Assembly: GCA_020851035.1 (NCBI GenBank)
Contig: JADZDM010000002.1
Location: forward strand, 3,995 to 67,994
Source: Gemmatimonadaceae bacterium
Lineage (GTDB): Bacteria; Gemmatimonadota; Gemmatimonadetes; Gemmatimonadales; Gemmatimonadaceae
Direction: 5' to 3'
DNA: 64,000 nucleotides
Of the stretch, positions 7,304 to 48,453 are shown one piece after another. Position 1 is the stretch's first letter. Every line of letters begins with the position of its first letter. Under the pieces are notes generated by a model. The model saw only the letters and a list, made by a program, of their open reading frames with translations, was not told the origin of the DNA and made no database searches. Both the position numbers and the translations under genes were made by a program.

Positions 7304-7409
7304 CTCAGCACAACCGTACACGTGGTGATTTGCCGCCTTATTGCAGCCACGTTAAACAACTCGCTAAAATGGACGCGCCTGGCGGCTCCCACGTTCGCAC
7401 AGGCGCGCT

Positions 7410-24608: not shown

Positions 24609-24782
24609 CACTGATCCGGGCGGGGGGAAGGTCAGGAGCAGCACGGCCACGCAGCGGCCGCGGTGCGACAGCGGAAATAAAGCGACCTGACAGGCCGGTG
24701 AGGACCGGTGAGGACCGTTGAGGGCCACCGGGGGCAGGCCGGTGCGCCGGGCGTGTCCCTCCCCCGTCGCGCGGCGCCGGCG

Positions 24783-28135: not shown

Positions 28136-29088
28136 TCGTCCCGGCACTGCCCTCGACACGCCGCGTCGCGATCATCGCGACCGTGCTCCTCGCATTGCAC
28201 CTCGGTGCGCCCGCTGCCGTCGCCGTGGCGCAGCGCGCCGCGCCGCCCCAGCGCATCACCGTCACCTCCGACGGGCACGCGCTCACCGTCTGGGCGCGCC
28301 AGGCGCCGCGGGCACGCGGCGTGGTGGTGCTGCTCCACGGCCGCACCTGGTCTGCCCTGCCCGACTTCGACCTCGCGGTCCCCGGTGAGGACCTGTCGGT
28401 GATGCGCGCGTTCGTGCGGCGTGGCTACACCGTATATGCGCTGGATGCGCGCGGCTACGGCGGCACGCCGCGCGATGCCAGCGGATGGCTGACGCCGAAC
28501 CAGGCCGCACGGGACGTGGCGGCCGTGCTGCGCGCGGTGGCCGCGCGACACCCGGCGCTGCCGAGACCCACGCTGGTCGGCTGGTCGTACGGCTCGATGG
28601 TCGCCCACCTGACGCTGCAGCAGGAACCGGCGCTGGCTTCGGGCGTGGTGCTGTTCGGCTACCCGCGTGACCCCGACATGCGGCTCGCCTCGACCGGTGA
28701 CACGGTGACCCCGCCGCGCGCGGCCAACACGGCCGCGAATGCCGCCAGTGACTTCATCATCCCGGGTTCGATCACGCCGGCCGCCGTGCAGGCGTATGTC
28801 ACGGCGGCGCTGCAGGCAGATCCGGTCCGGTCGGACTGGCGCGGGCTCGAGGAGTGGAACGCCCTGTCGCCGGAACGCCTCACGCTGCCGGTGCTCCTGT
28901 TGCACGGGGAGAAGGACCCCTTCACGCCGGTGGCATCACAGGCGAAGACCTTCACGCGCCTCGGGTCGCCGGACCGGCAGTGGGTGATCCTCGCCGGCGG
29001 CGACCATGCCGCGCTTCTGGAAGCGACCGCGCCGGCATTCATCGCCGCCATCACGGCGTTCATCGAGCGCCCGCCGCTGCGGCGCTGA
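28132..29088 (+). CDS. Alpha/beta hydrolase, secreted
   Basis: GTG 28132 overlaps the patatin stop (GTGA). ..VVVLLHGRTWS.., nucleophile GWSYGS, ..LLLHGEKDPF..GGDHAALLE.. Confidence 0.8.
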   Translation: MIVPALPSTRRVAIIATVLLALHLGAPAAVAVAQRAAPPQRITVTSDGHALTVWARQAPRARGVVVLLHGRTWSALPDFDLAVPGEDLSVMRAFVRRGYTVYALDARGYGGTPRDASGWLTPNQAARDVAAVLRAVAARHPALPRPTLVGWSYGSMVAHLTLQQEPALASGVVLFGYPRDPDMRLASTGDTVTPPRAANTAANAASDFIIPGSITPAAVQAYVTAALQADPVRSDWRGLEEWNALSPERLTLPVLLLHGEKDPFTPVASQAKTFTRLGSPDRQWVILAGGDHAALLEATAPAFIAAITAFIERPPLRR

Positions 29089-29217
29089 TCGCCCCTCACC
29101 CGGACAGGCGATCCACGCGCGCGTGCACGGGGCATAGGTTCTCCGCCGTTGCCACCCGGTGTCCGCGATCGAGCCGCGGCGCCGGGACCGGAGTCCGTCC
29201 GACACAAGGGGTTGCGC

Positions 29218-29556
29218 GTGGACCAGGATCAGCGGGTGCGGCTGGGAGGCGTGTTCTTCGTCGTCATGGGCGGTGTGCTGGGCTGGCTCTCCATCTGGCG
29301 GCCGTACCAGGAGGCGCTTGGCGGCAGCCCGACCGTGCAGCTCAACCGGACCGGGATCGGGCTGGCGATCCTGCTGCCACTGATGGGTGTGCTCCTTGCT
29401 GCCGGCGGCGACACGGTGGTGCAGCACCTCAAGGCGAACACCGCTGGCAGAAAGACGCCGCGCGGCTGGCTCTACATCGGTGTCATCGCGGCCATCGCAC
29501 TCGGAGCGTTCCTGCTCGTCCAGGCGCAGTTCGAGTCGATGGGCTACACGATCTGA
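29218..29556 (+). CDS. Small membrane protein
   Basis: Track ORF 29149..29556. GTG 29218 is preceded by AAGGGG. TM helices LGGVFFVVMGGVLGWLSIW, IGLAILLPLMGVLLAAGG and WLYIGVIAAIALGAFLLV. Confidence 0.5.
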   Translation: MDQDQRVRLGGVFFVVMGGVLGWLSIWRPYQEALGGSPTVQLNRTGIGLAILLPLMGVLLAAGGDTVVQHLKANTAGRKTPRGWLYIGVIAAIALGAFLLVQAQFESMGYTI

Positions 29557-29593
29557 CACCGTCGCGCCTGCGTCACACGACACGATGCACATG

Positions 29594-29633
29594 CACACGG
29601 GGCCCCGCAGCCGATGCCGCGGGGCCCCGTGTG
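29594..29633. terminator. Strong bidirectional hairpin
   Basis: Perfect 15-bp inverted repeat CACACGGGGCCCCGC / GCGGGGCCCCGTGTG with a 10-nt loop, between convergent genes. No U-tract. Confidence 0.6.
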
Positions 29634-29656
29634 CCGCGTGCGATGCCGGCGCTGGC

Positions 29657-30805
29657 TCAGGCCGACGCCTGTCGCGGCTGCCCGTCGCTCGCCGGGACGT
29701 CCATGACACCTTCCGCCGTCTCCTGGATGAGCTGGTCGACCACGGCGTTCAGGTCGTTGGTGCGCGCGAACGTCGCGAGCTGGCGGTCGGCGCTCGAACC
29801 CTCGCTCAGGATCCGGTAGGCGTACTCGACCTCCTTGCGCGTGCCCAGTTCGTCGACGATGTCGCCGAGGAACCAGTCGAGGAACTCGCGGATGAGCTGC
29901 GGCGCCGGCAGTTCCACCTGCTTGCCGAAGTCGATCAGCTTGCCGCCCAGCCCGTAGCGGACCGCGCGCCACTTGTTCTCCTCGATCAGCGCCGAGGAGT
30001 ACACGCGGAAGGTGGTGTTGTCGCGGCGCATCTTGTAGAGCTTCGCGATCAGGGCCTGCAGGATGGCGGCGATGCACACCGCCTCGTCGACGCGGGTGCA
30101 GACGTCGCAGACGCGGAACTCGAGCGTGGGATACTTCCCGTGCGGGCGGATGTCCCACCAGATCTTGTGCGGCCCCGGGATCGACCCCGTCTCGACCAGC
30201 GTGTCGATGTACGACGTGTAGTCGTAGTACGAGTTGAGCAGCGGCGGCACGCCCGAGCGCGGGAAGGCGCGGAAAACCACGCTCCGGTAGGAGCGCAGGC
30301 CGGTCTCGCGACCATACCAGAACGGCGAGCTGCTGGTGAGGCAGAGGATGTGCGGCAGGAAGTAGCGCGCCACGTTGCAGGCATCGACGAGGAAGTCCTT
30401 GTCCTCGATGCCGATGTGCACGTGCGTGCCGAAGATGAGCAGGCGCTGGGCAAGGTCGCCCATGTCGTTGCGCGTGCCGAGGTAGTGGTCGTACGGGGTG
30501 ATCTCCTGCGTCTGCCAGTTCGCGAACGGGTGCGTTCCGGCGGCGGCGATGCGATACCCCTTCTTGGCGGCCAGCTCCATCACGCCCTTGCGCAGCATGA
30601 CGAGCTCCTTGCGCACCTCCGCCGGCGTCTGGCAGACGTTCGTCCCCACCTCGATGATCGACTGGTGCAGCTCCGGCTTCACCTGCGTGAGCACGCGGTG
30701 GTCCTCGGCGAGGAGCTGCGTCACGTACGAGACCAGGTCGCGCGAGACCGGATCGATGATCTGGTACTCTTCCTCGACGCCCAACGTCAGTGACGGTGCC
30801 TTCAT
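29657..30805 (-). CDS. Carboxylate-amine ligase, glutamate-cysteine ligase family 2 (YbdK-like)
   Basis: 382 aa. MKAPSLTLGVEEEYQIID.., ..GTHVHIGIED.., ..WWDIRPHGKYPTLEFRVCD.. Confidence 0.9.
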   Translation of the reverse strand: MKAPSLTLGVEEEYQIIDPVSRDLVSYVTQLLAEDHRVLTQVKPELHQSIIEVGTNVCQTPAEVRKELVMLRKGVMELAAKKGYRIAAAGTHPFANWQTQEITPYDHYLGTRNDMGDLAQRLLIFGTHVHIGIEDKDFLVDACNVARYFLPHILCLTSSSPFWYGRETGLRSYRSVVFRAFPRSGVPPLLNSYYDYTSYIDTLVETGSIPGPHKIWWDIRPHGKYPTLEFRVCDVCTRVDEAVCIAAILQALIAKLYKMRRDNTTFRVYSSALIEENKWRAVRYGLGGKLIDFGKQVELPAPQLIREFLDWFLGDIVDELGTRKEVEYAYRILSEGSSADRQLATFARTNDLNAVVDQLIQETAEGVMDVPASDGQPRQASA

Positions 30806-30874
30806 GGGGACGATGCGGGCTGGGGGATCGGGGGGGCTGCGGCGCGCCGGCGGCGCTCCCGCAGTCTAGCGGGT

Positions 30875-32233
30875 CTAGCGGGGCTGCACGAGGAAGGTCG
30901 GGACGGTGGACCCGCCGCCGGCCGAGACGTTGAGCAGGGCGGCGGTCGACAGCCGGCAGAGCCAGCCGTCGGCGTAGGCGCCGTCGCAGAGGAAGGGCGC
31001 CGTGTCGTACATCCGGTCCACCACCTGTGACCTGCCGTCGACGAGGGACGGATAGCCCTGCGAGGGGATGCCGACCCGCTCCTGGATCACGTAGGGGTGC
31101 TCGAGCGCCGTGCGCAGCGCGGCCGACCAGCCGTCGGCATCCACCGTCCACCCGAGGACGATGCCGGCGCCGCCGTAGTCGTCGTTGGGCTTGAGCACGA
31201 ACCGGTCACGGTTGGCGGCGGCGTGGGCGAGCAGGTCGACATGCTCGCCGTGGAAGATCGTGTTCCGCTCCTCCACCACGCGCGTCCACGGGATGCACTC
31301 GGCCACGGCGGCGTGCTGCGCCGGCGTGAGCAGGTGCGCGTTGCGCTCGTCGGTGAGTGCGGCCAGCGACGCCTTCTTGTGCAGGATCTTGCAGCGCGGC
31401 GGGTTCACCATGCAGACCTTCCGGTCGCGTACGGCACGGAACACCGGGTGGTCAACGCCACCGCGCTCGGCCAGCTCGTGCAGCAGGACACGCTTGTAGA
31501 GCAGCGTGACCGGCGTGCCGTTGAAGCGGAGCGTCTCGCCGTCGTACACGGCGTCGCGGGGGTCGACGATCGAGCACGGGATGCCCAGCTCGCGGAAGAA
31601 GCGCTGGAAGATCTCGAACTCGCTGAAGGTCGGCACCTCCTTCCAGTCGATGATGCCGACCTGCGGCACCTCGCGCACGCCGCGCCATTCCGCCCAGGCG
31701 CCGAGCACGGCGCGGAGCACGCCGTGGCGCGTGGGCACCGGCAGCAGGGCCCAGTCGCGCGCGAACTTCCGCGTCACGGGGAGGTCGCTGAACATGTCGG
31801 CGAGCGCGTCGTTGTAGCCGGCACCGGCGGGGGTCTCGGCGTTGTACTCGGTGAGCGAGATGACGCCGCTGTCGTCGTCCACGAAGTAGTCGAGTCGCGA
31901 CGTGGGGCTGCCGGCGCGGAACCCCGGGTCCACGCCCACCAGCGACTCCTCCCAGTCGGCGAGGCGGAACTGGTGCCGGACTTCGGGATCCGCCAGCGCG
32001 GCGGCGAGCACGGCGTCGAAGGCCGGCATCAGCCGCCTGGTGAGGTCCTGCACCCGGTCATACTGTGCCGGCGAGACCAGGCGCGGTCGGAGCACGGTGC
32101 ACAGCGGCCGGCCACCGAAGACCAGGCCGCGGCCAGCGAGCTGCGACGTCATCGCCGATGCCGACTCCTGCGCCAGCGCGTCGTCGGTGAGGAGGCCGTG
32201 CCAGGCGTCGATGGCGGGCAGCGCGGACGGCAT
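30875..32233 (-). CDS. Circularly permuted type-2 ATP-grasp protein (glutathionylspermidine-synthase-like)
   Basis: ORF 30875..33307 trimmed to ATG 32231-32233, a TGATG overlap with the upstream stop. ..SRLDYFVDDDSGVISLTEYNAETPAGAGY.., ..FVLKPNDDYGGAGIVLG.., ..YVIQERV.. Confidence 0.8.
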   Translation of the reverse strand: MPSALPAIDAWHGLLTDDALAQESASAMTSQLAGRGLVFGGRPLCTVLRPRLVSPAQYDRVQDLTRRLMPAFDAVLAAALADPEVRHQFRLADWEESLVGVDPGFRAGSPTSRLDYFVDDDSGVISLTEYNAETPAGAGYNDALADMFSDLPVTRKFARDWALLPVPTRHGVLRAVLGAWAEWRGVREVPQVGIIDWKEVPTFSEFEIFQRFFRELGIPCSIVDPRDAVYDGETLRFNGTPVTLLYKRVLLHELAERGGVDHPVFRAVRDRKVCMVNPPRCKILHKKASLAALTDERNAHLLTPAQHAAVAECIPWTRVVEERNTIFHGEHVDLLAHAAANRDRFVLKPNDDYGGAGIVLGWTVDADGWSAALRTALEHPYVIQERVGIPSQGYPSLVDGRSQVVDRMYDTAPFLCDGAYADGWLCRLSTAALLNVSAGGGSTVPTFLVQPR

Positions 32234-33195
32234 CAGCGGGTGCGTGAGGCGGTGAACATCGCGTCCCAGCCGAGGGCCTTCACCGACTCCCGCGGGTTCT
32301 TCGCGAGCCGGATCACGAGGTTGCTCATCTGCTCCACCGCCCAGTTGAAGTAGGTCGGCGTGAGGGAGTTGATGTCGAAGTCGGGCGCCGGGTTCATGAA
32401 GTCGATGGCGTACGGCACGCCATCCTTGATCGCGAACTCGATCGAGTTCATGTCGTAGCCGAACGCCTTCACGATGGTGCGGGCATCCTTGATGATGCGG
32501 GGCTCGAGGGTGCCGAGGAAGCCCGGCTCGACGCGGTACTTCCGCTCGCGCGGGTCGTACTTGATCGGCAGGACCTCCTCCTGGCCGACGCAGATGCAGC
32601 GCACGAATTCGTCCCACTTGATGAACTCCTGCACGATCATCGTGAGCAGGCCGGAGTTGTCGTAGTGGTGGATGAGCTCTGCCTTGCTCTCGCAGACGTA
32701 GACCTTCTTCCAGCCGCCGCCGTGGGCGTCCTTGAGGATGCAGGGCAGGCCGACCCAGCGCAGGATCTCGTCCCAGTCGAGTGGATACTTCAGGTTCCGC
32801 AGCGACTCGTCGGGGACGATGCCGGGGATGTACTCCTTGTTCGGAAGCACCACCGTCTTCGGGCTGACCACGCCGAGCTTCGTGATCAGCGCGGCCCCGA
32901 AGAACTTGTCGTCGGCCGACCACATGAACGGGTTGTTGATCACCGACGTGCCGTTGAGCACCGCCTGCTTGAGCACGGTGCGATACATCGGCACCTCGTG
33001 CGAGATGCGGTCGACGAGGACGTCGTACACCCGGTCGGCGTCCATGTGCTCGCCGCCGAACTTCGCGAGCGAGGCGGTGACGCCGGCATCCTTGGCGTTG
33101 ACGGCCTCGATGAAGGCGGGCGGGAAGGACCACTCGCGCCCCACCACCAGCCCAACGTGCTTCACCTGCGCAGGACCTTTCGCCATCGGTGGCAC
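32233..33195 (-). CDS. ATP-grasp ligase (RimK/glutathione-synthetase-like)
   Basis: 320 aa. ..LPCILKDAHGGGWKKVYVCES.., ..MIVQEFI.., ..MNSIEFAIKDGVPYAIDFMNPAPD.. Confidence 0.75.
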   Translation of the reverse strand: MPPMAKGPAQVKHVGLVVGREWSFPPAFIEAVNAKDAGVTASLAKFGGEHMDADRVYDVLVDRISHEVPMYRTVLKQAVLNGTSVINNPFMWSADDKFFGAALITKLGVVSPKTVVLPNKEYIPGIVPDESLRNLKYPLDWDEILRWVGLPCILKDAHGGGWKKVYVCESKAELIHHYDNSGLLTMIVQEFIKWDEFVRCICVGQEEVLPIKYDPRERKYRVEPGFLGTLEPRIIKDARTIVKAFGYDMNSIEFAIKDGVPYAIDFMNPAPDFDINSLTPTYFNWAVEQMSNLVIRLAKNPRESVKALGWDAMFTASRTR

Positions 33196-33201
33196 CCCTG
33201 G

Positions 33202-33924
33202 TTAGTCGTGACCGCCCACGTACATCCGGATCATCTTCTCCCAGTACGGCCAGTCGTGCGACCAGCCGTCCCAGAGCCGCAAGGCGTTGCCCACGCCCTT
33301 GTTCCACAGCATCGACGAGAACTCCTCGTTGTTCCGGCAGCTCGGGTCGTCACGGCCGATGGCCATGATGATGTCGATGCGCCGCATGGCCTCGAGGCGG
33401 CCGTGGTCGGCCTCGTGCGCCATGAACGCCATCGGGTTGGCGGCGTACACGTTCGCGTCCATGTGGCCCGACGCCTGCCGGCTGATGTCGTACAGGCCGC
33501 TGAGGCCGATGATGCGGTTGACGAGGTGCGGGAAGCGCAGCCCGAACGACATCGCGTGGTAGGCCCCGAAGCTGGCGCCGGCGAGGATCACGAAGGGCGT
33601 GCCATTCCGGTGGTGCATGAACGGCAACACCTCGTCCCGGATGTAGTCGTGGTACTGGAGGTGGCGCCAGGCGCGGGCGCCCGGGTGCCGCGCGCGGTCG
33701 TACCAGCTCTCATGGTGCACGTGGTCCACGGTGAACATCTGGAGCCAGCCGCGCTCGAGGTGGTCCCGCAGCACGAGGTGCATGCGGCGGTCGGTCCACT
33801 CGCGGTGGCTGCCGAGCGACGTCGGGAAGACCAGCATCTTGGCGCCGGCGTGTCCCCAGACGTGCATGGCCATCTCGCGGCCGTCCAGCGCCGGGCTCCG
33901 CCAGGCCTGGTATTCATGGTGCAT
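33202..33924 (-). CDS. Esterase-fold protein (PF00756-like)
   Basis: 240 aa. Nucleophile elbow ..VILAGASFGAYHAMSFGLRFP.. The ATG shares 1 nt with the upstream stop at 33924. Confidence 0.8.
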   Translation of the reverse strand: MHHEYQAWRSPALDGREMAMHVWGHAGAKMLVFPTSLGSHREWTDRRMHLVLRDHLERGWLQMFTVDHVHHESWYDRARHPGARAWRHLQYHDYIRDEVLPFMHHRNGTPFVILAGASFGAYHAMSFGLRFPHLVNRIIGLSGLYDISRQASGHMDANVYAANPMAFMAHEADHGRLEAMRRIDIIMAIGRDDPSCRNNEEFSSMLWNKGVGNALRLWDGWSHDWPYWEKMIRMYVGGHD

Positions 33925-34745
33925 CAGTGTCTCCGGTCGGAGCGGGTGACGGACAGCAGCGCGGGCAGCGCCTTGCGGAAGCGGCGGCCCCAGGCGCTCT
34001 CATGGTGCACGCCGATGGCGTCCTCCACCCAGCGGAGGCGCTCGCCCGGCACGTAGCCCTTGTTCACGAGCATGTCGCGCAGCCGGCGCGCGTTCGCCAG
34101 CGTGCGCTCGCCCTCGCGGGCCCCGACATCGAGGTAGATGCGGGCGTCGCTGAACGGCTGGTGCCTCACCCAGTCGAAGATCGCCCCCTGCGCGAACCAG
34201 AGTGACGGGCTCATGACGGCCGCGAAGCCGAAGACGTCGCGGCGCGCGAAGACGGCGTAGAGCGAGAAGAGTCCGCCCATCGACGACCCGCCGACGCCGG
34301 TGTGCTCGCGCGCCGGCAGGGTGCGGTACCGGTCGTTGATCACGGGCCGGAGCACGTCGGACAGCCAGGTGAGGTACGGCGCCGCGTCCCCACCGCCCAC
34401 CCGCTCGTCCATGAACGGGCTGTACTCCGCGATCCGGTGCTGCGACGCGTGATAGACGCCGACGATGATCGCGTTGGCCCCCAGCCGCGACGCCGACACC
34501 AGCTCCTCGGAGAGTCCCCAGGAGCCGGCGTACGAGGTGCCATCGTCGAACAGGTTCTGGCCATCCTGCATGTAGATCACCGGATACCGGCGCACCTCCT
34601 CGAAGTACTCGCCGGGGAGGTAGACGGCCACCGTGCGCGTCTCCCCCTCGGTCGGTCCCGGGATGTCGGTGACCACCTCGAGCGTTCCCGCCTGTGTGCG
34701 TGTCCGGAACAGGCGCCGCAGGGAGCGGCGCAGGCGCAGGGGCAT
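33924..34745 (-). CDS. Esterase-fold protein (PF00756-like)
   Basis: 273 aa. ..YPVIYMQDGQNLFD.., ..GVGGSSMGGLFSLY.. Confidence 0.8.
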   Translation of the reverse strand: MPLRLRRSLRRLFRTRTQAGTLEVVTDIPGPTEGETRTVAVYLPGEYFEEVRRYPVIYMQDGQNLFDDGTSYAGSWGLSEELVSASRLGANAIIVGVYHASQHRIAEYSPFMDERVGGGDAAPYLTWLSDVLRPVINDRYRTLPAREHTGVGGSSMGGLFSLYAVFARRDVFGFAAVMSPSLWFAQGAIFDWVRHQPFSDARIYLDVGAREGERTLANARRLRDMLVNKGYVPGERLRWVEDAIGVHHESAWGRRFRKALPALLSVTRSDRRH

Positions 34746-34748
34746 GTA

Positions 34749-35972
34749 TTACGACGCGTAGAGTTGGAGGTCGGTTCCGACCGCATCGGCGATCTGGCAC
34801 GCCTGCGCGAAGTCCGGGTGCCGGATGGTGAGGTAGCCGTCGGAGAGCAGGGTCAGCACCCAGTCGCGCCGCGGCTGGCCCACCGGCAGCAGGTCGATGT
34901 TCACGATGTGCTCACCGAAGCGCTGCACGAGCTGCTCGAGCCCCGTCACGCGACTGATCGCGCCATGGCCCTGCGCCCGCTTGAAGATGTTGACGGCGTT
35001 GTACTTCCGGGTGACCTCGAGCGAGAAGGTGCCCTGCAGCTCGGCCTCGGCGTAGCCCATGTAGAGGTCCACGTCCGAGACGTAGTTCATCAGGTCCACC
35101 GTGCGGGCGCCGGGCGGACGGGCGGCGATCTCACCGAAGACCACCTCGCCGTCCGACTTCCGGTACCACTCCATGTGCGTGAACGCGTTGCCGGGGTTCA
35201 TCGCGCGGAGGACGTCGGCGCCCATCTGCCGGCCGCCGGCCACCCAGTCGCTGTCGACGTCACGCAGGCAGAGGGTCTGGGGGCTGATCCACTCCACGCT
35301 GCGCGCCACCAGCGGGCGGGGGCGGTAGTAGCCGATGTTGAAGAACTGCATCGCGCCGTCGATGCAGATCGTGTCGAACGTGAACTCCTCGGCCTCGATG
35401 AACTCCTCGACGTTCACGTGCTCGATGTGCGTGAGGCGCTTCAGCGCGGCGTCCAGCTCGCGGGCGTCATCCACGCGGAAGGTGTCCATCGAGCCGGCGC
35501 CGTCGATCGGCTTGATGATCAGCGGGTAGCCGATGTACTCCGCCGCCTCGCGCACTTCGGCCGCCGATGTCGCACCGCGGTGGCGCGGCGTGCGGATGCC
35601 CGCCGCGGCGACACGCGCCTTCATGATGTCCTTGTTGCGGAACGCGATCGCGTCCTCGACGCCCATCCCCGGCACCCCGAGCGCCGCGCGCAGCTTCGCC
35701 GCCAGCACCACGCCGGGCTCCCAGAGGCAGACCACCCGGTCGAAGGTGCGGCCCACCCACTGTGCCGTCACCGCCGCGACCACCGCGTCCTCCTGGTTGA
35801 TCTGCGGCGTCTGCAGGTAGCCCGAGAGGTGGCGGCGCGTCAGCTCCGGCAGGTTGCCGGCCGGCACGTCACTGATCCCATACACCTTCGCCCCGAACGT
35901 CGAGAGCGCGCGGCAGAACAGCGGCATCTCGTCGGGATAGCCCGGCGCGATCATCAACACGTTCATGTGCAT
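34749..35972 (-). CDS. ATP-grasp ligase B (L-amino-acid-ligase-like)
   Basis: ORF 34749..36128 trimmed to ATG 35970-35972 (MHMNVLMIAPGYP..). ..YPLIIKPIDGAGSMDTF.., ..VEEFIEAEEFTFD.., ..THMEWYRKSDGEVVFGEIAARPPGA.. Confidence 0.85.
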   Translation of the reverse strand: MHMNVLMIAPGYPDEMPLFCRALSTFGAKVYGISDVPAGNLPELTRRHLSGYLQTPQINQEDAVVAAVTAQWVGRTFDRVVCLWEPGVVLAAKLRAALGVPGMGVEDAIAFRNKDIMKARVAAAGIRTPRHRGATSAAEVREAAEYIGYPLIIKPIDGAGSMDTFRVDDARELDAALKRLTHIEHVNVEEFIEAEEFTFDTICIDGAMQFFNIGYYRPRPLVARSVEWISPQTLCLRDVDSDWVAGGRQMGADVLRAMNPGNAFTHMEWYRKSDGEVVFGEIAARPPGARTVDLMNYVSDVDLYMGYAEAELQGTFSLEVTRKYNAVNIFKRAQGHGAISRVTGLEQLVQRFGEHIVNIDLLPVGQPRRDWVLTLLSDGYLTIRHPDFAQACQIADAVGTDLQLYAS

Positions 35973-36009
35973 CCCCTGGCGTGAGCGTCCAACCGCGAGT
36001 CCCGTGTGA

Positions 36010-37230
36010 TCACCCCAGATCCACCTGCACCAGCTCCACCACGCGGCGGATCGCCCGTTCCACCACCACCGTCTCGGGATGGCGGAGGATGACGTAGCCG
36101 TCGCCCTCGTACGTGGCGGCCGGTGCATGCCCCACCACCGGCAGCTTCACGTCACACACCAGGTGCCCGAACTCGGCCTGCACCTGTTCCAGCCCGCGCA
36201 CCCGGCGCACCACCCCGCTCCCCTGCCCGCGCAGGAATGCGGCGGCCACGGCGTACTTGCGCTGCGGCGGCGTGAACTCGCCGTGCACCATCAAGTTCGC
36301 CCAGGCCCCGACGAAGTCCACGTCGTTCGCGCGGCTGATCAGCGTCGTGATCTGCGCACCCGGCGGCCGCGCCGCCACCTCGGAGATCGCCACCGTGCCG
36401 TCGGCGCGCCGGAACCATTCCATGTGGGTCAGCCCGGTGGTCTGGCCAAGGGCATCCAGCGCCTCGACCGCCGCATCGCGGATGTCGTCGAACCTCGGGT
36501 GGTCGACCTCGCGCGGCAGCACCACCACCCACTGGATCCACGGGTTGCGCAGGACCTCCAGCGGCGTGGGGTGGTAGTGCGTGAGCGAGTGCCAGACCGC
36601 ACGGCCGTCGATCGAGATGGTCTCGAAGGAGTGCTCGGTGCCGGTGATGAACTCCTCCAGCATCACCGGCGCCAGCACCGACGGCTGCGCGAGCTCGAGC
36701 GCCTCGCCAAGCGCGCGCGCGTCATCCACGCGGTAGGTGGACAGCGCGCCGGCACCGGCCTGCGGCTTGACCACCAGCGGGAAGCCGACCCGCTCCGCGA
36801 ACGCGATCGCGTCGACGTACCGCTCCACGAGGGCGTGGCGCGCGCAGGGCAGCCGGTGGGCGCGCAGCACGTCCTTCATGCGCGACTTGTCCCGGAAGTT
36901 CAGCGCCGCACGCACCGGCAGCCCGCTCACGCCGAGCGACTCCCGCACCACCGCCAGCGGCACCTGCAGCTGCTCGTAGGCGCCGAAGAGCCGCTCGACG
37001 CCGCCGATCCGGGCCGCCACCTCGCCCACCGCCTGCCGGAGCTGCAACACGTCCAGCACGTCGTCCACGCGCCAGTGCTGCACGATCACGTCCCGCGTCT
37101 GGCGCGGCGCCTGGTCGACGTCGTCTTCCGTGATCACGCCAAGCTGCACGCCGGGCAGCGCCCCGAGCGCCTCGACCATCCTCGCCGCGTTGTCGGACAG
37201 ACGCGGTGCGACGAAGATGACCGGGATCAT
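36010..37230 (-). CDS. ATP-grasp ligase A (L-amino-acid-ligase-like), paralog of 34749..35972
   Basis: ORF 36010..37755 trimmed to ATG 37228-37230, an ATGA overlap with the GH57 stop. ..FPLVVKPQAGAGALSTY.., ..LEEFITGTEHSFE.., ..THMEWFRRADGTVAISEVAARPPGA.. Confidence 0.85.
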   Translation of the reverse strand: MIPVIFVAPRLSDNAARMVEALGALPGVQLGVITEDDVDQAPRQTRDVIVQHWRVDDVLDVLQLRQAVGEVAARIGGVERLFGAYEQLQVPLAVVRESLGVSGLPVRAALNFRDKSRMKDVLRAHRLPCARHALVERYVDAIAFAERVGFPLVVKPQAGAGALSTYRVDDARALGEALELAQPSVLAPVMLEEFITGTEHSFETISIDGRAVWHSLTHYHPTPLEVLRNPWIQWVVVLPREVDHPRFDDIRDAAVEALDALGQTTGLTHMEWFRRADGTVAISEVAARPPGAQITTLISRANDVDFVGAWANLMVHGEFTPPQRKYAVAAAFLRGQGSGVVRRVRGLEQVQAEFGHLVCDVKLPVVGHAPAATYEGDGYVILRHPETVVVERAIRRVVELVQVDLG

Positions 37231-38822
37231 GCCAGGGCCGCGCGCAACGCGGGGAAGATGTCCGGGAAACAGTCGTCGCGCACCTTCAGCTCCGCCGCAT
37301 AGTTGTGCGCCGTGGTGAAGTCCCCGCTCTCGAAGCCCTGGTGCATCAGCCCGAGGATCTGCTCCAGGTCGGCGCAGTGCGAATGGAAGCGGTGATCGCC
37401 GTAGTCGGCCGCCTCGCCCATCGTGACGATGAACGGCCAGTCGCTGCTCTGTGCCAGCAGCAGCGTGCGCGCGGCCTGCTCGAGCGCGGTGTGCGCGAGC
37501 GGTTCGCCGAGCGCGCGGCCGGCGATCTCCCAGAAGGCGTTCTCCAGCGGCCAGAGCCGCCGCCACATGTACGCCACCTTCGGCCCCACCCAGGTGGACC
37601 AGTCGGCGTGTGCGCCCCACGACCCCGGCTCCACCGGGATGCCCGGCGCATTCGGGTTGTCCCGCAGGTGCTCGCCTGCCGTGGCCGGCCGCAGCAGCGG
37701 CACGTGCTGCAGCTCGCGATAGAGCTTGTTCAGGAACTCCGGCCCCTCCGCCCACCAGTGCCCGTACAGCTCCGTGTCGAACGGCGCCATGATGAGCGAG
37801 GTCCCGAACGGGTGCTGCTCACGGGCGATCGCGCCCAGCAAGGTGGCGAAGTGCCGGGCGTGCTCCTCGACCTTGTTCTGCGCGACCTCGGGCCAGTACG
37901 GGTGCTTCTCGCCGAGATCCACCTTGCGGCCGGTGATGCGCCAGAGCTTCAGCCCCCCTTCCTGGTGCGTCTTGTGGAACTCCAGGTAGGCGCCGTCGCC
38001 CGGGTAGCCGCCGTCGGCACTCCAGATCTGCGCGGCGGTGCGCTGGTCGCGCGCCAGCGCATACACATGCGCCTCGCCATTCTCCTGCTTGATCCGGTAG
38101 GCGCGGTAGGCGGTCCGCTCCTTGTGCCGGCCCTGCACCAGCGGCGCATCGAGCGTCACGTACTGGAAGCCCGCGGCGCGCACCTCGTGCTCGATGCCGT
38201 GCCGCACGCCGCGATTGGGGGCGTGCTTGAGCGGCTCCCACCAGCCGCCGGGCCGGTACGCACACTCCGGCAGCCAGCACCCCGCCGGCCGGCGCCCGAA
38301 CAGGCGCTCATGCTCGCGGCGGCCCAGCTGGAGCTGGAACTTGATGCTCTCGTCGCGACCCAGCAGGGGAAGGAAGCCATGCGTGGCCGCCGAGCCGGTG
38401 ATCTCGATCCGTCCGTCGTCGGCGAAGCGCCGGAACTCGCCGAGGATGTCGCCATCGAGAGCGCGGTAGAGCTCGAGGTACTTCCGCATGTTGCCGGCGG
38501 TCCAGCCGCACACGTGGCTCAGGCCATCGTCGCCCCGCGCAGCGAACCGGGCGCCCTCCTCCTCCAGGCACTTCAGCTTGTTCGCAGCCCACTTCTCGAA
38601 GATCGCCGGGAAGGTCGGGTGCGCCAGCTGGTTGGCCAGGATCGGTGTGATCCCGAGCGTGACCGGCGCGTGCACGTTGTCCATCTGCAGCCAGCGCATC
38701 TTCTCGATCAGCGGCAGGTACGTCTCCATCGTGGCCTCGGAGAGCCAGTCGGAGCCGTGTGGCCAGTCGCCGTGATTCAGCACCCACGGCAGGTGCGAGT
38801 GCAGCTGGAGGACGAAGTCCAT
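37227..38822 (-). CDS. GH57 family 1,4-alpha-glucan branching enzyme-like protein
   Basis: 531 aa. MDFVLQLHSHLPWV.., ..TGSAATHGFLPLL.., ..MAPFDTELYGHWWAEG.. A GH57 catalytic region with a DUF1957-like C-terminus. Confidence 0.85.
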   Translation of the reverse strand: MDFVLQLHSHLPWVLNHGDWPHGSDWLSEATMETYLPLIEKMRWLQMDNVHAPVTLGITPILANQLAHPTFPAIFEKWAANKLKCLEEEGARFAARGDDGLSHVCGWTAGNMRKYLELYRALDGDILGEFRRFADDGRIEITGSAATHGFLPLLGRDESIKFQLQLGRREHERLFGRRPAGCWLPECAYRPGGWWEPLKHAPNRGVRHGIEHEVRAAGFQYVTLDAPLVQGRHKERTAYRAYRIKQENGEAHVYALARDQRTAAQIWSADGGYPGDGAYLEFHKTHQEGGLKLWRITGRKVDLGEKHPYWPEVAQNKVEEHARHFATLLGAIAREQHPFGTSLIMAPFDTELYGHWWAEGPEFLNKLYRELQHVPLLRPATAGEHLRDNPNAPGIPVEPGSWGAHADWSTWVGPKVAYMWRRLWPLENAFWEIAGRALGEPLAHTALEQAARTLLLAQSSDWPFIVTMGEAADYGDHRFHSHCADLEQILGLMHQGFESGDFTTAHNYAAELKVRDDCFPDIFPALRAALA

Positions 38823-38828
38823 GGAAGG

Positions 38829-40478
38829 TCAGCGGGCAGAGAGGACGGAGCGGTAGACATCGCGATAGCGCTCTTCCGAGCGCTCCCAGCCGAAGTCACG
38901 GGCCATGCCATCGCGCATCATGCGGAACCACTGGTCGCGGTCCCGGTAGGCGATGACGGCCCGCGCCACCGCCTCGGCGAAGCCCGTGGCCGTGAACTCG
39001 TCGAACACGAACCCGGTGACGCCGTCGTGCACGGTGTCGGCCAGGCCACCGACCCGGCGGACCAGCGGCACTGTACCGTAGCGCTGTGCGCGCATCTGCG
39101 TGAGGCCGCACGGTTCGTAGAGGCAGGGCATGAGGAGCACGTCGCCGCCGGCCATCAGGCGGTGCTCCTTGTCGTCGGAGAAGTCCGTGTCGACGACGAT
39201 GCGATCGCGGTGGCGCGCGGCGAGGGCGCGCAGGCCGTTGACGAAGCGCGGATCCCCGTTGCCGAGGAAGACCCATTGCGCATCGGCATTGAAGATCCAC
39301 GGGTTGTCGAGGATCAGCTCCAGCCCCTTCTGCTGGACGAGGCGGGCGGTCATCACGAAGATCGGGACATCGGCGCGATCGGCGAGGCCCAGCTCTCGCT
39401 GCAGCGCCTGGCGGCAGGCGGCCTTGCCGCCGATGTCCTCGCGCGAGAACGGGGCCGCGATCGCGGGGTCGTTCTGCGGATCCCAGCGGGTCTGGTCGAT
39501 GCCGTTGAGGATGCCGCTGAACTGCGCCCCCTTGAGCAGGAACGTGTCGTGAAGGCCGAAGCCTCCCTCGGCGGTCCGCAGCTCGTCGGCGTGGGTCATG
39601 CTCACCGTCGTGACGGCGTCGGCGAAGGCCATGCCACCCTTGAGCAGGTTCATCCGGCCGTACCACTCGAACTGGTGGTGGTTGTACAGCGACATCGGGA
39701 GCCCGACCTCGGCCATGGTGCCGGCGTCGTAGTGGCCCTGGTAGCCCGCGTTGTGGACGGTGAGGACCGTGGCGACCTCGCGATGCCAGGGGCTGTCGGC
39801 GTACCAGGTGCGCAGGTAGGCGAGGGCCAGGCCGGTGTGCCAGTCGTGGGCGTGGAGGATGGCCGGGGCCGACGTGATCCGGGGGAGGATGCGGAGGGCG
39901 GCGGCGCAGAAGAAGGCGTAGCGACGGGCACTGTCGCCATAGGAGCCGCTGGCGTCGCCGTAGATCCCCGGGCGGTCGAACAGCTCGCGGTTGTCGATGA
40001 ACCAGACGGTCGGGAGTGCGGTGGCGCCGCGCATGCCGACGACCTCGGCCGTCCGGTCCGCGGGAAGGCGGTAGAGCTGGGTGCCGTATCCGCGAAAGGC
40101 GACGTCGGTGATGAACGGCGCGTCCACCGGCTCCAGGTCGGGGAACTGGTCGCGGACCTGTCGGTAGAGCGGAATGACGATCGACACATCCATGCCCGCG
40201 GCGGCCTGGTACGCGGCCAGGCTGCTGACGACCTCGCCGAGGCCCCCGGTTCGGGCGATCGGAGCGAGCTCGACCGACAAGTGGACCACCGAGACCGGTC
40301 GCTGGTCGCTGGCGGCGAGCGGGGTGGCGGGCTTCCGCTTGAGGAAGCGGCCATCAGCACCGCGCACCGCCGGTGCGGTCTTGGGCTTGGGGGTCCGCTT
40401 GGGGGTCCGCTTCGGCGCGGGCGCAGCGGCGGGCTTCGCCGCGGGCTTCGCTGCCTGCCGGGGAGTCCGTGGAGCCAT
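38829..40478 (-). CDS. glgA: Glycogen synthase (GT5) with an A/K/P-rich N-terminal extension
   Basis: ORF 38829..40976 trimmed to ATG 40476-40478. ..VVHLSVELAPIARTGGLGEVV.., ..HAHDWHT.., ..EPCGLTQM.. Confidence 0.9.
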   Translation of the reverse strand: MAPRTPRQAAKPAAKPAAAPAPKRTPKRTPKPKTAPAVRGADGRFLKRKPATPLAASDQRPVSVVHLSVELAPIARTGGLGEVVSSLAAYQAAAGMDVSIVIPLYRQVRDQFPDLEPVDAPFITDVAFRGYGTQLYRLPADRTAEVVGMRGATALPTVWFIDNRELFDRPGIYGDASGSYGDSARRYAFFCAAALRILPRITSAPAILHAHDWHTGLALAYLRTWYADSPWHREVATVLTVHNAGYQGHYDAGTMAEVGLPMSLYNHHQFEWYGRMNLLKGGMAFADAVTTVSMTHADELRTAEGGFGLHDTFLLKGAQFSGILNGIDQTRWDPQNDPAIAAPFSREDIGGKAACRQALQRELGLADRADVPIFVMTARLVQQKGLELILDNPWIFNADAQWVFLGNGDPRFVNGLRALAARHRDRIVVDTDFSDDKEHRLMAGGDVLLMPCLYEPCGLTQMRAQRYGTVPLVRRVGGLADTVHDGVTGFVFDEFTATGFAEAVARAVIAYRDRDQWFRMMRDGMARDFGWERSEERYRDVYRSVLSAR

Positions 40479-40737
40479 GAAGGGCTTCCTGCGAGAGGGG
40501 CAGACGACACCCCGCCGAGCATCGCAGGATGTACTGGTGAGTTCGGCAGGCGCGAGGGGTGACGCGCCGGTCCACTGGCCGCGGCACGCCGCTGGCAGGC
40601 GCCGCCGACCGACACTCGCAAGGTGCGCAGCCCGGAGCCGTATTTCCAGTAGGCGCCGCCCGGTTCGGGACGGTTCTCCGGCCCGCGCGTCTGCAGACAA
40701 CTGCCCGACTCCACCAGATGTCCCTAGTTTGCTGACC

Positions 40738-42876
40738 GTGACCAACATCATTCCGAGCCGGATCGCCGGCCTGCAAGAGCTCGCGAGTAATCTCTCGTGG
40801 AGCTGGAACCGCGAGGCGCGCGCCCTGTTCGCCGCCATCGACGACCGCCTCTGGCTGTCCACGCGCCACAACCCTGTCACCTTCCTCCAGCGGGTCGCGC
40901 CGGAGCGCCTGCAGGCCTGCGCCGACAACCCGGCCTTCCGGGCGATGTACGACGAGGCCATGCACTGGTCCCGCACCGAGGCCCAGTCGGACTCGACCTG
41001 GTTCGCGAAGACCTACCCAGAGCTGACGAAGTCGAAGATCGCCTATTTCTGCGCCGAGTTCGGGCTCCATTCCTCGGTCCCGATCTACTCGGGCGGCCTC
41101 GGCGTCCTGGCGGGTGACCACTGCAAGACCGCCTCGGACCTGGGCGTGCCGCTGGTCGGCGTCGGCCTGCTCTACCGGAACGGCTACTTCGACCAGCGCA
41201 TCAACGTGGATGGCTGGCAGGAGAACATGGATGACACCTTCGACCTGGCCAGCACGCCGATCACCCCGGTCCTGAACGCCGACGGCAGCGACCTGACCGT
41301 CTCGGTGATGGTGGCGGGTGCCGAGGTGCTGGTGCGGGCGTGGCGGCTGATGGTGGGCCGCGTGCCGCTGATCCTGCTGGACACCGACCTCCCGGCGAAC
41401 CGTCCCGAGGACCGGGAATTGCTGAGCCGGCTGTACGCTGGCGGCGTGGACCTGCGCCTCCGCCAGGAGTGGCTGCTCGGCGTGGGCGGCGTGCGGATCC
41501 TGCGCGCGCTCGGCATGGAGCCCGATGTGTGGCACGCCAACGAGGGGCACGCGAGCTTCATGTTCATCGAGCGGCTGCGAGAGCTGCGTTCGACCGGCAT
41601 GGCGATGGCGGCGGCGGTCACGGCCGTGCGGCGCGCCTCGGTGTTCACCACCCACACCCCCGTGCCCGCCGGCCACGACGTCTTCCAGCGGTCGGCCGTC
41701 GAGACGGTGCTCGGGCCGGTCTGGACGGACCTGGGCATCGACGCCGACGCTTTCGCGAACTTCGGGTTCCACCCGCACTACGGGAAGGACCAGTTCCACA
41801 TGACGGCATGCGCCGTCCGCTTCGCCTCGAAGGTGACCGGCGTGGCCAAGCTGCACGGCGAGGTGTCGCGCGAGCTGCTCCACCCCATGTGGCCGAACCG
41901 CGGCGTGAACCAGGTGCCGGTGGGGCACGTGACGAACGGCGTGCACCTGGCCACCTGGATGGCCAGCCCGATCATGAGCACGCTCGACAAGCACCTCGGG
42001 CGCGGCTGGGGCTTCCAGCTCGACAACCCGGACACGTGGAACCGCATCATGAAGGTGCCGGACGCCGATCTCTGGGCGGCCCACCTCGAGCTGAAGAACG
42101 TGCTGATGGACCGCGTGATCGAGCGCGCGCGCCGCAGCTTCGCCCGCGGCCACAAGGAGGCCACGCAGACGGTGAGCGCCGGCGTGCTGCTCGACCGGTC
42201 GAGCCTGATGATCGGCTTCGCGCGCCGGTTCGCGACCTACAAGCGCGCCGACCTGCTGTTCCACGATCCGGAGCGGCTCCGCAAGATCCTGACGAACCCC
42301 GTCGCGCCGGTGCAGCTGGTGTTCGCCGGCAAGGCGCACCCTGCCGACGGGCCGGGCAAGACCGTGCTGCAGCGCGTGTACCAGTTCACGCGCGACCCGC
42401 GGTTCGAGGGCCGCGTGGCCTTCATCGAGGACTATGACATGCACGTGGCCCACCTGCTGGTGCAGGGCGTGGACATGTGGATGAACCTTCCCCGCCCCCC
42501 TCTCGAGGCCTCCGGCACCAGCGGCATGAAGGCGGCGCTCAACGGTGTGCCCCAGCTCAGCACGATCGACGGCTGGTGGGCCGAGGGGTGCGACGGCACC
42601 AACGGCTGGTCGGTCACGGCGCCGAACGACCCGTCGCAGGACGCGGCTGCCGCGAACAACGTGTACGAGCTCCTCGAGCGCGAGGTGGTGCCGCGGTTCT
42701 ACGACCGCACGCACCGCGACGCGATCCCGGCCAAGTGGCTGGCGACGATGAAGCACAGCATCCGGCAGGCGGGGCGCTTCTTCACCGCCGCCCGCATGGT
42801 GCAGCAGTACACCACCGAGTACTACGCACCGGCCATCATCGGCGGCGACTTCCCCGACGATCCACCGACGGCGTGA
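40738..42876 (+). CDS. glgP: Alpha-glucan phosphorylase (GT35, DUF3417 N-terminus)
   Basis: ORF 40174..42876 trimmed to GTG 40738; TTG 40729 is also possible. ..LASNLSWSWNREARALF.., ..YFCAEFGLHSSVPIYSGGLGVLAGDHCKTASDLGVPLVGVGLLY.., ..EASGTSGMKAALNG.. Confidence 0.9.
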   Translation: MTNIIPSRIAGLQELASNLSWSWNREARALFAAIDDRLWLSTRHNPVTFLQRVAPERLQACADNPAFRAMYDEAMHWSRTEAQSDSTWFAKTYPELTKSKIAYFCAEFGLHSSVPIYSGGLGVLAGDHCKTASDLGVPLVGVGLLYRNGYFDQRINVDGWQENMDDTFDLASTPITPVLNADGSDLTVSVMVAGAEVLVRAWRLMVGRVPLILLDTDLPANRPEDRELLSRLYAGGVDLRLRQEWLLGVGGVRILRALGMEPDVWHANEGHASFMFIERLRELRSTGMAMAAAVTAVRRASVFTTHTPVPAGHDVFQRSAVETVLGPVWTDLGIDADAFANFGFHPHYGKDQFHMTACAVRFASKVTGVAKLHGEVSRELLHPMWPNRGVNQVPVGHVTNGVHLATWMASPIMSTLDKHLGRGWGFQLDNPDTWNRIMKVPDADLWAAHLELKNVLMDRVIERARRSFARGHKEATQTVSAGVLLDRSSLMIGFARRFATYKRADLLFHDPERLRKILTNPVAPVQLVFAGKAHPADGPGKTVLQRVYQFTRDPRFEGRVAFIEDYDMHVAHLLVQGVDMWMNLPRPPLEASGTSGMKAALNGVPQLSTIDGWWAEGCDGTNGWSVTAPNDPSQDAAAANNVYELLEREVVPRFYDRTHRDAIPAKWLATMKHSIRQAGRFFTAARMVQQYTTEYYAPAIIGGDFPDDPPTA

Positions 42877-48074: not shown

Positions 48075-48453
48075 GTGTTGCTCCCTGAGCGGGTGATCGA
48101 CGGGTGTGGGCGCGGCCGCAGCGGTGTGGGGCGACCGGATCGGCACGGACGGCCGTCTGGGGCAGCTACGACGCCTGCCGACGATCGGATCTCACGGGTT
48201 CCGACCTGGCCAGCCGCATCCGCCTGCGGCATCCGCCGGGCGCGGCCGTGACGTCGCTCCGACGACACGCGCAAGCTGTCGCGTCGCCGCGACAGGGCCG
48301 GCCGTGCACGGGTGCAACACTCGCACGCAGCGTGTCGCGCCATTCGTTGCAGGATTGTCACGCACGCGCCCGGCGCAGTCCGTACTTTTCGCGACGCGGA
48401 TCACCGGCCGGCGCGCGCCGGCCTGCGCCGTCACCCCTCACCCAGGCACCACC

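Follow-up and report, generated by a model that had tools for sequence, protein, structure and literature searches.

We analysed a stretch of 64,000 nucleotides (nt) from the genome of a soil bacterium of the Gemmatimonadaceae (contig JADZDM010000002.1; hereafter the window), in which a string of nine minus-strand genes joins two genes of glycogen synthesis to five putative ligases and two esterases. We regard the nine genes as a lineage-specific operon of this genome, within which a separable ligase/hydrolase system appears to be one that is repeatedly joined to glycogen synthase. The string begins with glgA (38829-40478), encoding a GT5 glycogen synthase, followed by the gene of a GH57 1,4-alpha-glucan branching enzyme (37227-38822), the paralogous genes of two L-amino-acid-ligase-like enzymes, grA (ATP-grasp A, 36010-37230) and grB (ATP-grasp B, 34749-35972), and the genes of two PF00756 serine hydrolases, esterase A (33924-34745) and the divergent esterase B (33202-33924). 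Three further ligase genes complete it: those of a RimK/LysX-like ATP-grasp of an unnamed family (32233-33195), of a circularly permuted ATP-grasp with the glutathione synthetase (GS)/GspS fold, an acid-amine ligase of 452 amino acids (30875-32233), and of a GCS2 ligase, a carboxylate-amine ligase of the YbdK type (29657-30805; PF04107, NF010039). All nine open reading frames (ORFs) claimed in an earlier, sequence-only reading of the window are present with the same ends, and recomputing the junctions returned identical values: a gap of 6 nt between glgA and the GH57 gene, a 4-nt ATGA overlap of the GH57 stop with the grA start, gaps of 37 nt and 3 nt before grB and esterase A, a 1-nt overlap of the esterase A stop with the esterase B start at 33924, a gap of 6 nt, another 1-nt overlap at 32233, and 69 nt between the GS-fold and GCS2 ligase genes. 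With the alternative start of the RimK-like gene at ATG 33186, taken from a 317-amino-acid database model (P0001), the gap in front of it would be 15 nt and not 6. The G+C content at third codon positions (GC3) is of the coding type in all nine genes (0.89-0.95) in a window of 70% GC throughout, and a recent horizontal gain of the seven genes other than those of glycogen synthesis was rejected because GC3 is uniform over the string.

About 250 bp upstream of the string a divergent glgP-like gene begins, and a convergent ORF lies on its downstream side. The divergent intergenic region (40479-40728) is presumed to be the promoter region of both glgA and the glgP-like gene, an alpha-glucan phosphorylase-like gene with DUF3417 and Phosphorylase domains (40729-42876, plus strand) whose in-frame TTG and GTG starts at 40729 and 40738 lie just ahead of the DUF3417 match. 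A second GH57 gene, encoding a protein with DUF3536, follows on the same strand (42850-44162, start approximate), and the glgP-like gene occupies the same divergent position in six related loci (L001-L004, L038 and L086). At the other end, 23 nt past the GCS2 stop codon, lies a GC-rich hairpin (29593-29634, minus strand) without a T-tract, which agrees with the earlier statement that a single strong hairpin follows the last gene. Its stem of 19 bp (18 Watson-Crick pairs and one G-U pair; -64.9 kcal/mol, z = -5.15 against shuffled sequences) makes it by far the strongest inverted repeat in 29200-41000, where the remaining inverted repeats are imperfect and intragenic. The hairpin probably marks the transcript end or acts as a stabiliser; it is not conserved in relatives and is therefore uninformative on function. 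As a scan of 28500-41500 returned no sigma-70 promoter and no T-tract terminator consensus, a result that is uninformative at 70% GC, it is the gene spacing that suggests co-transcription of the nine genes. Rfam models found no riboswitch at the module in the window or in seven related loci, where a tRNA in L054 was the only hit.

Domains were called with Pfam and NCBIfam profiles at their own cut-offs, and folds were assigned from AlphaFold2 models compared with the PDB by Foldseek; the profiles reproduced the ligase and esterase families proposed before. GlgA matches PF08323 (E = 3.9e-67) and passes TIGR02095 (476.4 bits against a cut-off of 328.45), just missing the equivalog-level models (433.7 against 459). 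The GH57 protein carries PF03065 (E = 2e-32) and the BE_C domain PF09210 (E = 2.7e-18), and matches the Thermus-type branching enzyme model NF041566 at E = 1e-128 and 430 bits, below its equivalog cut-off of 920. Together with the divergent phosphorylase and the second GH57 gene, these two genes recall glgBXCAP operons and Thermus-type GH57 loci. Unlike in such loci, no GlgC-type (NTP_transferase) gene was found among the scanned ORFs of the 64-kb window, seven non-carbohydrate genes follow, and GlgA has a basic tail; in the related locus L082, 4 kb separate the module from a glgC-like gene. This N-terminal tail comprises about 60 amino acids rich in Lys, Pro and Ala (approximately 40300-40478, minus strand). 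Basic GlgA extensions of 20-60 amino acids, rich in Lys/Arg, Pro and Ala, also occur in L001, L003, L047, L048, L058, L068, L094 and L104; across Gemmatimonadales the tail varies in sequence and retains its basic character. Such a tail could tether GlgA to a polyanion, e.g. polyphosphate, nucleic acid or an acidic polypeptide.

The two ligases encoded by grA and grB are 33-35% identical. GrA matches PF02222 and among PDB entries comes closest to two L-amino acid ligases, 4wd3 (E = 1.7e-16) and 3vot (E = 2.3e-13); GrB has ATP-grasp matches in Pfam and NCBIfam. Neither passes a curated equivalog model, and both match the cyanophycin synthetase model TIGR02068 (CphA) over about 90 residues only (36 and 31 bits against 850). 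The RimK-like protein is identical to one of a Gemmatimonadaceae metagenome-assembled genome. A database search with it returned over 8000 relatives, which share 65-70% identity from phylum to phylum and none of which has a Pfam domain on record. It scores 44.8 bits against TIGR00768 (cut-off 143.4), matches TIGR02144 weakly and reaches E = 0.0011 with PF08443, under the cut-off. Sequence searches of the PDB with the RimK-like and the GS-fold proteins gave no significant match, so the structures of both were predicted. For the RimK-like protein the alignment was shallow and over-similar and the AlphaFold2 model of low confidence (pLDDT 65), and the Foldseek ranking of RimK, ArgX/LysX and Ddl at the top is at most indicative. 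Although these structural relatives of the 320-amino-acid protein include RimK and LysX/ArgX, it lies far below the family cut-offs, has no S6 (rpsF) or LysW partner gene, and belongs to a separate family of very strong conservation. A tblastn search of PLSDB plasmids with this protein found no match. Many of its homologues (P0047, P0066, P0069, P0083, P0085, P0086 and P0087) are extended at the N- or C-terminus by a long disordered tail in which Lys, Ala, Pro and Gly abound, and one of them matches the histone-H1-like PF07382; the copy in the window is tail-less.

The circularly permuted enzyme matches PF14403 weakly in the window (E = 0.007), a domain that its homologues carry, and its AlphaFold2 model (pLDDT 89.8) confirms the fold. 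Foldseek ranked eukaryotic-type glutathione and homoglutathione synthetases first (8fbz, 2hgs, 3kal and 5oes; TM 0.65-0.72, E down to 7e-19), a fold-level likeness at 13-17% identity, followed by 3n6x (a putative glutathionylspermidine synthase), the E-64 ligase Cp1B and the E. coli proteins GspS, YjfC and YgiC; by sequence profile the nearest are 3n6x, YgiC and YjfC. Modelling thus identifies the protein as an acid-amine ligase of the GS/GspS fold. The sole over-long homologue (P0211, 609 amino acids) was rejected as a domain fusion, since the addition is an internal near-duplicate of its own N-terminal region and is likely an assembly artefact. The PF14403 superfamily also provides the ligase of the CP_ATPgrasp_2/alpha-E/transglutaminase (Anbu-associated) operons; membership of these was rejected, as neither the window nor any of 85 annotated or mapped loci contains alpha-E, transglutaminase or Anbu genes. 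The GCS2 ligase, finally, matches PF04107 (E = 1.9e-56), the "carboxylate-amine ligase" model NF010039 (508 bits against 371) and YbdK (PDB 1r8g, E = 9e-42), and is 67-97% identical across loci.

Esterase A (PF00756, E = 1.8e-25; PDB 5cxu, E = 2.6e-10) is closest to CE1 feruloyl esterases, including CE1 enzymes that bear CBM48, and to siderophore esterases of the IroE/Fes type. Its catalytic triad of S155 (in the motif G153-x-S155-x-G157), D206 and H247 is at least 95% conserved in 49 sequences, and the same holds in 63 sequences for S118 (GxSxG), D193 and H223 of esterase B (PF00756, E = 1.3e-7), whose gene adjoins that of the RimK-like protein in almost all loci. The nearest solved relatives being CE1 and IroE/Fes enzymes, an identity as S-formylglutathione hydrolases was rejected. 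Neither a context of siderophore uptake nor one of secretion towards plant cell walls was found: the esterases are accompanied by no TonB receptor or ABC importer and carry no signal peptide, and their neighbours are ATP-grasp ligases. No membrane segment or signal peptide was predicted in any of the nine proteins, all of which are thus predicted to be soluble and cytoplasmic.

To place the string among its relatives, one genome per species was scanned with the RimK-like alignment, which yielded 80 loci, the nine proteins were mapped by tblastn and the other ORFs were clustered; maps of loci above 70% GC rest on tblastn, because ORF calling based on GC3 mis-assigned strands there. This comparison revealed that three units, each also found separately, are joined end to end in the nine-gene string. 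The first unit, glgA and the GH57 branching enzyme gene, is part of the larger divergent glycogen locus. The second consists of grA, grB and esterase A, and the third of esterase B and the RimK-like, GS-fold and GCS2 ligases, with a C26 peptidase gene added in most genomes. In the 80 loci the genes of the third unit, usually with esterase A ahead of them, make up a constant core, found in Gemmatimonadales, Longimicrobiales, Acidobacteriota, Bacteroidota and several orders of Chloroflexota. The earlier proposal that the nine genes act as one pathway unit is not supported on this point: the third unit is found by itself, with the surrounding 10 kb free of glycogen genes, in Chloroflexota, Acidobacteriota, Bacteroidota and Longimicrobiales.

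The additional gene, encoding a Peptidase_C26/GATase protein of the PuuD-like gamma-glutamyl hydrolase family, directly follows the GCS2 gene in 33 of the 47 loci with enough downstream DNA (e.g. L006:13570-14373). The closest relatives of the window lack it as well, and their string stops after the GCS2 gene; the lineage of the window seems to have lost or moved it, and the strong hairpin occupies its position. In six Gemmatimonadales loci (e.g. L006:14390-15871) the C26 gene is followed by that of a conserved protein of about 495 amino acids, which has no Pfam match at E <= 0.001 and by eye resembles a long GCS-type ligase. Loci of the Bacteroidota type have an M19 dipeptidase and a single L-amino-acid-ligase-like ATP-grasp beside esterase A. 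The pairing of grA with grB is kept in nearly all loci anchored on grA. In Pyrinomonadaceae-like contigs grA, grB and esterase A occur alone, beside metH and lipid genes, and eight metagenome contigs (L112, L119-L121, L131, L132, L155 and L156) have grA and grB alone beside pyrB (aspartate carbamoyltransferase) and pyrC (dihydroorotase-like), in some cases with an M28 peptidase gene upstream; the pair therefore has a role that depends neither on glycogen nor on the other genes of the module. Among the recurrent neighbours there was no conserved transporter, regulator, carrier protein, precursor peptide, oxidoreductase or methyltransferase.

To count the linkage to glycogen genes, we took the loci anchored on the RimK-like gene that are flanked by 8 kb or more in both directions and scored glgA and/or GH57 genes within 10 kb; shared ancestry inflates such counts. 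Glycogen genes lie near the module in 12 of the 24 Gemmatimonadales loci, in at least seven arrangements, and in none of the five well-flanked loci of other lineages. The order of the window recurs in L001-L005, L012 and L038, while in L006-L009, from Gemmatimonas species, glgA is accompanied by a long GH57 enzyme that replaces the branching enzyme and the string continues through grA, grB, esterases A and B and the RimK-like, GS-fold and GCS2 ligases to the C26 gene. L048 has both GH57 genes. The esterase pair is inverted and placed between the glycogen genes and grA in L068, and glgA abuts the inverted esterase pair without grA and grB in L047, L052 and L066. Furthermore, in L042, L051, L073 and L074 the whole glycogen block lies downstream on the opposite strand, and L058, L015 and L077 have looser forms. 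Fifteen loci anchored on grA have at least 5 kb on each side; five of them contain glgA, all five together with the esterase and RimK-like genes, and nine contain none of these genes. By a rough estimate, chance alone would place a single-copy gene within 10 kb of an anchor in about 0.4% of genomes of 4-5 Mb (about 4.5 Mb).

A scan of metagenomes with grA returned many copies of the Gemmatimonadales arrangement and, in addition, a second, deeply diverged type of cluster (type II: L122, L128, L130, L139, L144, L153, L157, L159 and partial ones), exemplified by L157:9989-20813, in which several gene pairs overlap by ATGA. Type II clusters contain grA, grB, a third ligase paralogue here called grC, and a RimK-like protein 28-33% identical to that of the window. 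Their esterases are an esterase-B-like protein and a Fes-like protein of 378 amino acids with an N-terminal Enterochelin_N/E-set domain, the latter weakly similar to CBM20/CBM48 and better matched by Enterochelin_N. A divergent S51 (cyanophycinase-family) peptidase, PF03575, is encoded only in type II relatives (L157, L144, L149, L158, L160, L162 and L164), and some clusters include a PGM1/BesA-like ATP-grasp of the gamma-glutamyl ligase type or a GCS2 protein with CBS domains. The latter, in L144 (11986-14544, plus strand; 852 amino acids), has tandem CBS domains and adjoins grB; it may be a ligand-regulated carboxylate-amine ligase. GlgA of type II is 34-40% identical to that of the window, lacks the basic tail, and is a bona fide glycogen synthase (540 bits with TIGR02095, and 464 against 459 for the equivalog NF001899). 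Its gene stands alone inside the ligase cluster, without glgC or glgB, and in five type II loci it is followed on the same strand by grC, overlapping it by ATGA in L157.

Whether the linkage persists in relatives was the test on which the earlier reading had staked its case, and with 12 of the 24 Gemmatimonadales loci and the type II clusters it holds as far as proximity is concerned, which outlasts rearrangement; co-transcription of the glycogen and ligase genes is not universal, given the opposite strands in four Gemmatimonadales loci. Since the association recurs in two cluster types with GlgA proteins as dissimilar as these, and in more than ten arrangements, we argue for a functional coupling to glgA and not an accident of gene order. 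The cluster can be described as an NRPS-independent ATP-grasp ligase pathway (NRPS, non-ribosomal peptide synthetase) or a reserve-compound operon with an unusual, recurrent tie to glycogen synthase. In agreement with the earlier statement, no characterised pathway in Pfam, NCBIfam, the PDB or the literature fits the gene set, which is undescribed in the publications searched, although an earlier in silico mention is still possible (Iyer/Aravind 2009 amidoligase survey).

The reading we favour, with a probability of roughly 0.45, is that the operon directs an intracellular gamma-glutamyl-type oligopeptide or poly(amino acid), made and broken by an ATP-driven system and co-expressed with glycogen. 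That the compound would be both made and unmade in the cell is suggested because the set consists of ligases and hydrolases only, which are cytoplasmic and come without an exporter. Glutathione with the gamma-glutamyl cycle, cyanophycin with cphA/cphB, and glycogen all show this made-and-unmade pattern. By analogy, the gamma-glutamyl-type product would be a reserve or stress metabolite alongside glycogen. Transcription would start in the 250-bp divergent region upstream of glgA and end at the hairpin at 29.6 kb. The two glycogen enzymes would convert ADP-glucose into a branched alpha-glucan, and in parallel the GCS2 ligase would form a gamma-glutamyl-X bond via an acyl-phosphate. The GS/GspS-fold ligase could then add an amino acid or amine to the free carboxylate, following the logic of GshA then GshB, or of GspS, which is proposed because the GCS2 gene adjoins that of a GS/GspS-fold ligase and is then followed by a gene of the gamma-glutamyl hydrolase family. 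The RimK/LysX-like enzyme might attach alpha-linked residues, possibly repeatedly, and the two L-amino-acid-ligase paralogues might supply or lengthen di- or oligopeptides. The two serine esterases would break down or recycle the product, elsewhere also with the help of C26, M19 or S51 enzymes; the M19 dipeptidase of Bacteroidota and the S51 peptidase and BesA-like ligase of type II clusters fit peptide turnover.

Among known systems, cyanophycin is a dynamic poly(amino acid) reserve: a synthetase with an ATP-grasp domain produces it, and an S51 serine peptidase whose gene accompanies that of the synthetase degrades it. The operon resembles that system in bringing ligases and hydrolases together in the cytoplasm without an exporter, in the weak similarity of its ATP-grasp enzymes to the CphA grasp domain, in the divergent S51 peptidase of its type II relatives and in its association with a carbon reserve, which fits the logic of a reserve polymer. 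Unlike there, the CphA multidomain synthetase and a Mur-ligase-like domain are missing, the window has no S51 peptidase, and the hydrolases belong to PF00756. GrA and GrB also recall the dipeptide pathways of L-amino acid ligases (BacD, RizA, BL00235, TabS, RhiM/RhiC), being nearest to 4wd3, 3vot and BacD, and tandem ligase paralogues are likewise a feature of rhizocticin biosynthesis; in contrast to such natural-product pathways, no genes for warhead biosynthesis, export or resistance surround them. Homologues of grA are 54-94% identical across many contigs, and such conservation of the pair over many lineages, in part in housekeeping neighbourhoods, fits a place in primary metabolism better than one in secondary metabolism.

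Several observations weigh against the gamma-glutamyl reading. The core occurs without nearby glycogen genes in four other lineages, and hence co-expression with glycogen is not intrinsic to it; the window has no Peptidase_C26 gene, on which the gamma-glutamyl argument turns; and the GCS2 protein falls under every NCBIfam cut-off for glutamate-cysteine ligases (at best 339 against 409 and 277 against 332). Moreover, the RimK-like model is of low confidence (pLDDT 65), the lack of a promoter or terminator consensus makes co-transcription an argument from spacing, and PF00756 comprises esterases, not peptidases, so that two of them kept in both cluster types are ill explained by an all-amide product.

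It is the esterases that lead to the main alternative, already the first idea of the earlier reading, which we consider unlikely and in which amino acids or peptides activated as acyl-phosphates are esterified to hydroxyl groups of the GlgA glucan and removed again by the esterases, giving a store of both carbon and nitrogen. That ATP-grasps of the operon load the glucan with amino acids or short peptides and CE1/Fes-like esterases unload it, as a hitherto unknown hybrid polymer of Gemmatimonadota and of other uncultured soil and sediment bacteria, we hold to be rather unlikely. Both versions draw on the two PF00756 esterases retained with intact triads in the two cluster types, on the CE1 carbohydrate esterases, some with CBM48, that are the best solved relatives of esterase A, and on the CBM20/CBM48 similarity, weak as it is, of the E-set N-terminal domain in type II. 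A lone glgA that overlaps a ligase gene within type II clusters, which a general storage regulon would not obviously need, points the same way. ATP-grasp enzymes can form esters, as do D-Ala-D-lactate ligases and the lactone-forming ligases of graspetides. To our knowledge, however, no enzyme of the L-amino-acid-ligase type uses a sugar hydroxyl as nucleophile. Furthermore, the N-terminal domain of the type II esterase is nearer to Enterochelin_N than to any carbohydrate-binding module, in four other lineages the 10 kb around the third unit contain no glycogen gene, and amino-acylated glycogen is not reported in the literature searched. A mycobacterial type of acylated glucan, like methylglucose lipopolysaccharide, was rejected, for the cluster has no methyltransferase or acyltransferase genes.

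The same autonomy of the core in Chloroflexota, Acidobacteriota, Bacteroidota and Longimicrobiales, where 0/5 loci have glycogen genes, would be expected if the product had nothing to do with glycogen and the adjacency of glgA reflected inherited Gemmatimonadales gene order and the packing of operons. The half of the Gemmatimonadales loci that have no glycogen genes nearby, the four with these genes on the opposite strand (L042, L051, L073 and L074) and the occurrence of grA-grB beside the housekeeping genes metH and pyrB/pyrC agree with such a separation. We nevertheless find it improbable, given 12/24 loci in at least seven arrangements where the rough estimate predicts about 0.4%, the glgA-then-ligase pair conserved in type II with a GlgA 34-40% identical to that of the window, and the fact that loci anchored on grA have glgA only in company with the esterase and RimK-like genes (5/5).

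As a special case, a low-molecular-weight thiol resembling glutathione or glutathionylspermidine, made by the GCS2, GS-fold and RimK-like ligases, would assign the C26 protein the role of gamma-glutamyl hydrolase, M19 that of a Cys-X dipeptidase and the PF00756 proteins that of thioesterases related to S-formylglutathione hydrolase. The GCS2 gene does adjoin that of a ligase which in structure comes closest to glutathione and homoglutathione synthetases, the C26 gene follows in most genomes, M19 is present in Bacteroidota loci, and the enzymes are all ATP-dependent acyl-phosphate ligases or matching hydrolases, as in the glutathione/GspS and gamma-glutamyl systems. PF00756 includes esterase D/S-formylglutathione hydrolase, and an M19 dipeptidase cleaves Cys-Gly in glutathione breakdown. 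A thiol is nonetheless quite improbable: the GCS2 protein misses all glutamate-cysteine-ligase cut-offs and is named only a carboxylate-amine ligase, the GS-fold ligase is nearer in sequence to YgiC, YjfC and 3n6x than to glutathione synthetases, and the likeness of the esterases is to CE1 and IroE/Fes enzymes rather than to S-formylglutathione hydrolases. Neither the glgA linkage nor two or three L-amino-acid-ligase paralogues would have a reason in such a pathway; relative to glutathione synthesis, the RimK-like ligase and two esterases are also additional. Very improbable, finally, is a modification of proteins (glycogen enzymes or ribosomal proteins) with glutamyl or peptide tails by the RimK-like and GCS2 (PafA-like fold) enzymes, reversed by the hydrolases, for although RimK, LysX and ArgX act on protein C-termini, the RimK-like and GCS2 proteins keep an unusually high identity of 65-74% between phyla and basic disordered tails occur on GlgA in the window and on many RimK-like homologues, no locus has a conserved LysW-, Pup- or S6-like carrier or target gene, the RimK-like protein is under the RimK family cut-off, and the L-amino-acid-ligase-type and GS-fold ligases are small-molecule enzymes.

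Three features elsewhere in the window are unrelated to the operon. A SAM-II riboswitch (SAM_alpha, RF00521; 7312-7388, plus strand; 61 bits against a gathering threshold of 36) immediately precedes a possibly MetX-like alpha/beta-hydrolase ORF (7368-8411), the start of which it overlaps; this Rfam family is named for Alphaproteobacteria and is here found in a Gemmatimonadaceae genome. In addition, the window encodes a DNA/RNA non-specific endonuclease with Lamin-tail, Big_2 and PKD domains (48097-50955, plus strand) and a Sortilin/BNR-repeat protein of 1111 amino acids (21447-24782, minus strand).

Gemmatimonadota, Acidobacteriota and Chloroflexota are abundant soil phyla on which few experiments have been done, and the RimK-like and GCS2 proteins of the module are among their most conserved unnamed proteins. 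The module thus offers an entry point to a new intracellular metabolite or reserve, be it a gamma-glutamyl peptide in the manner of glutathione, a poly(amino acid) similar to cyanophycin or a glucan loaded with amino acids. If any such product is made, it would provide a function for large families now annotated merely as "hypothetical" or "ATP-grasp domain protein", and would inform how carbon and nitrogen are stored or buffered in oligotrophic bacteria.

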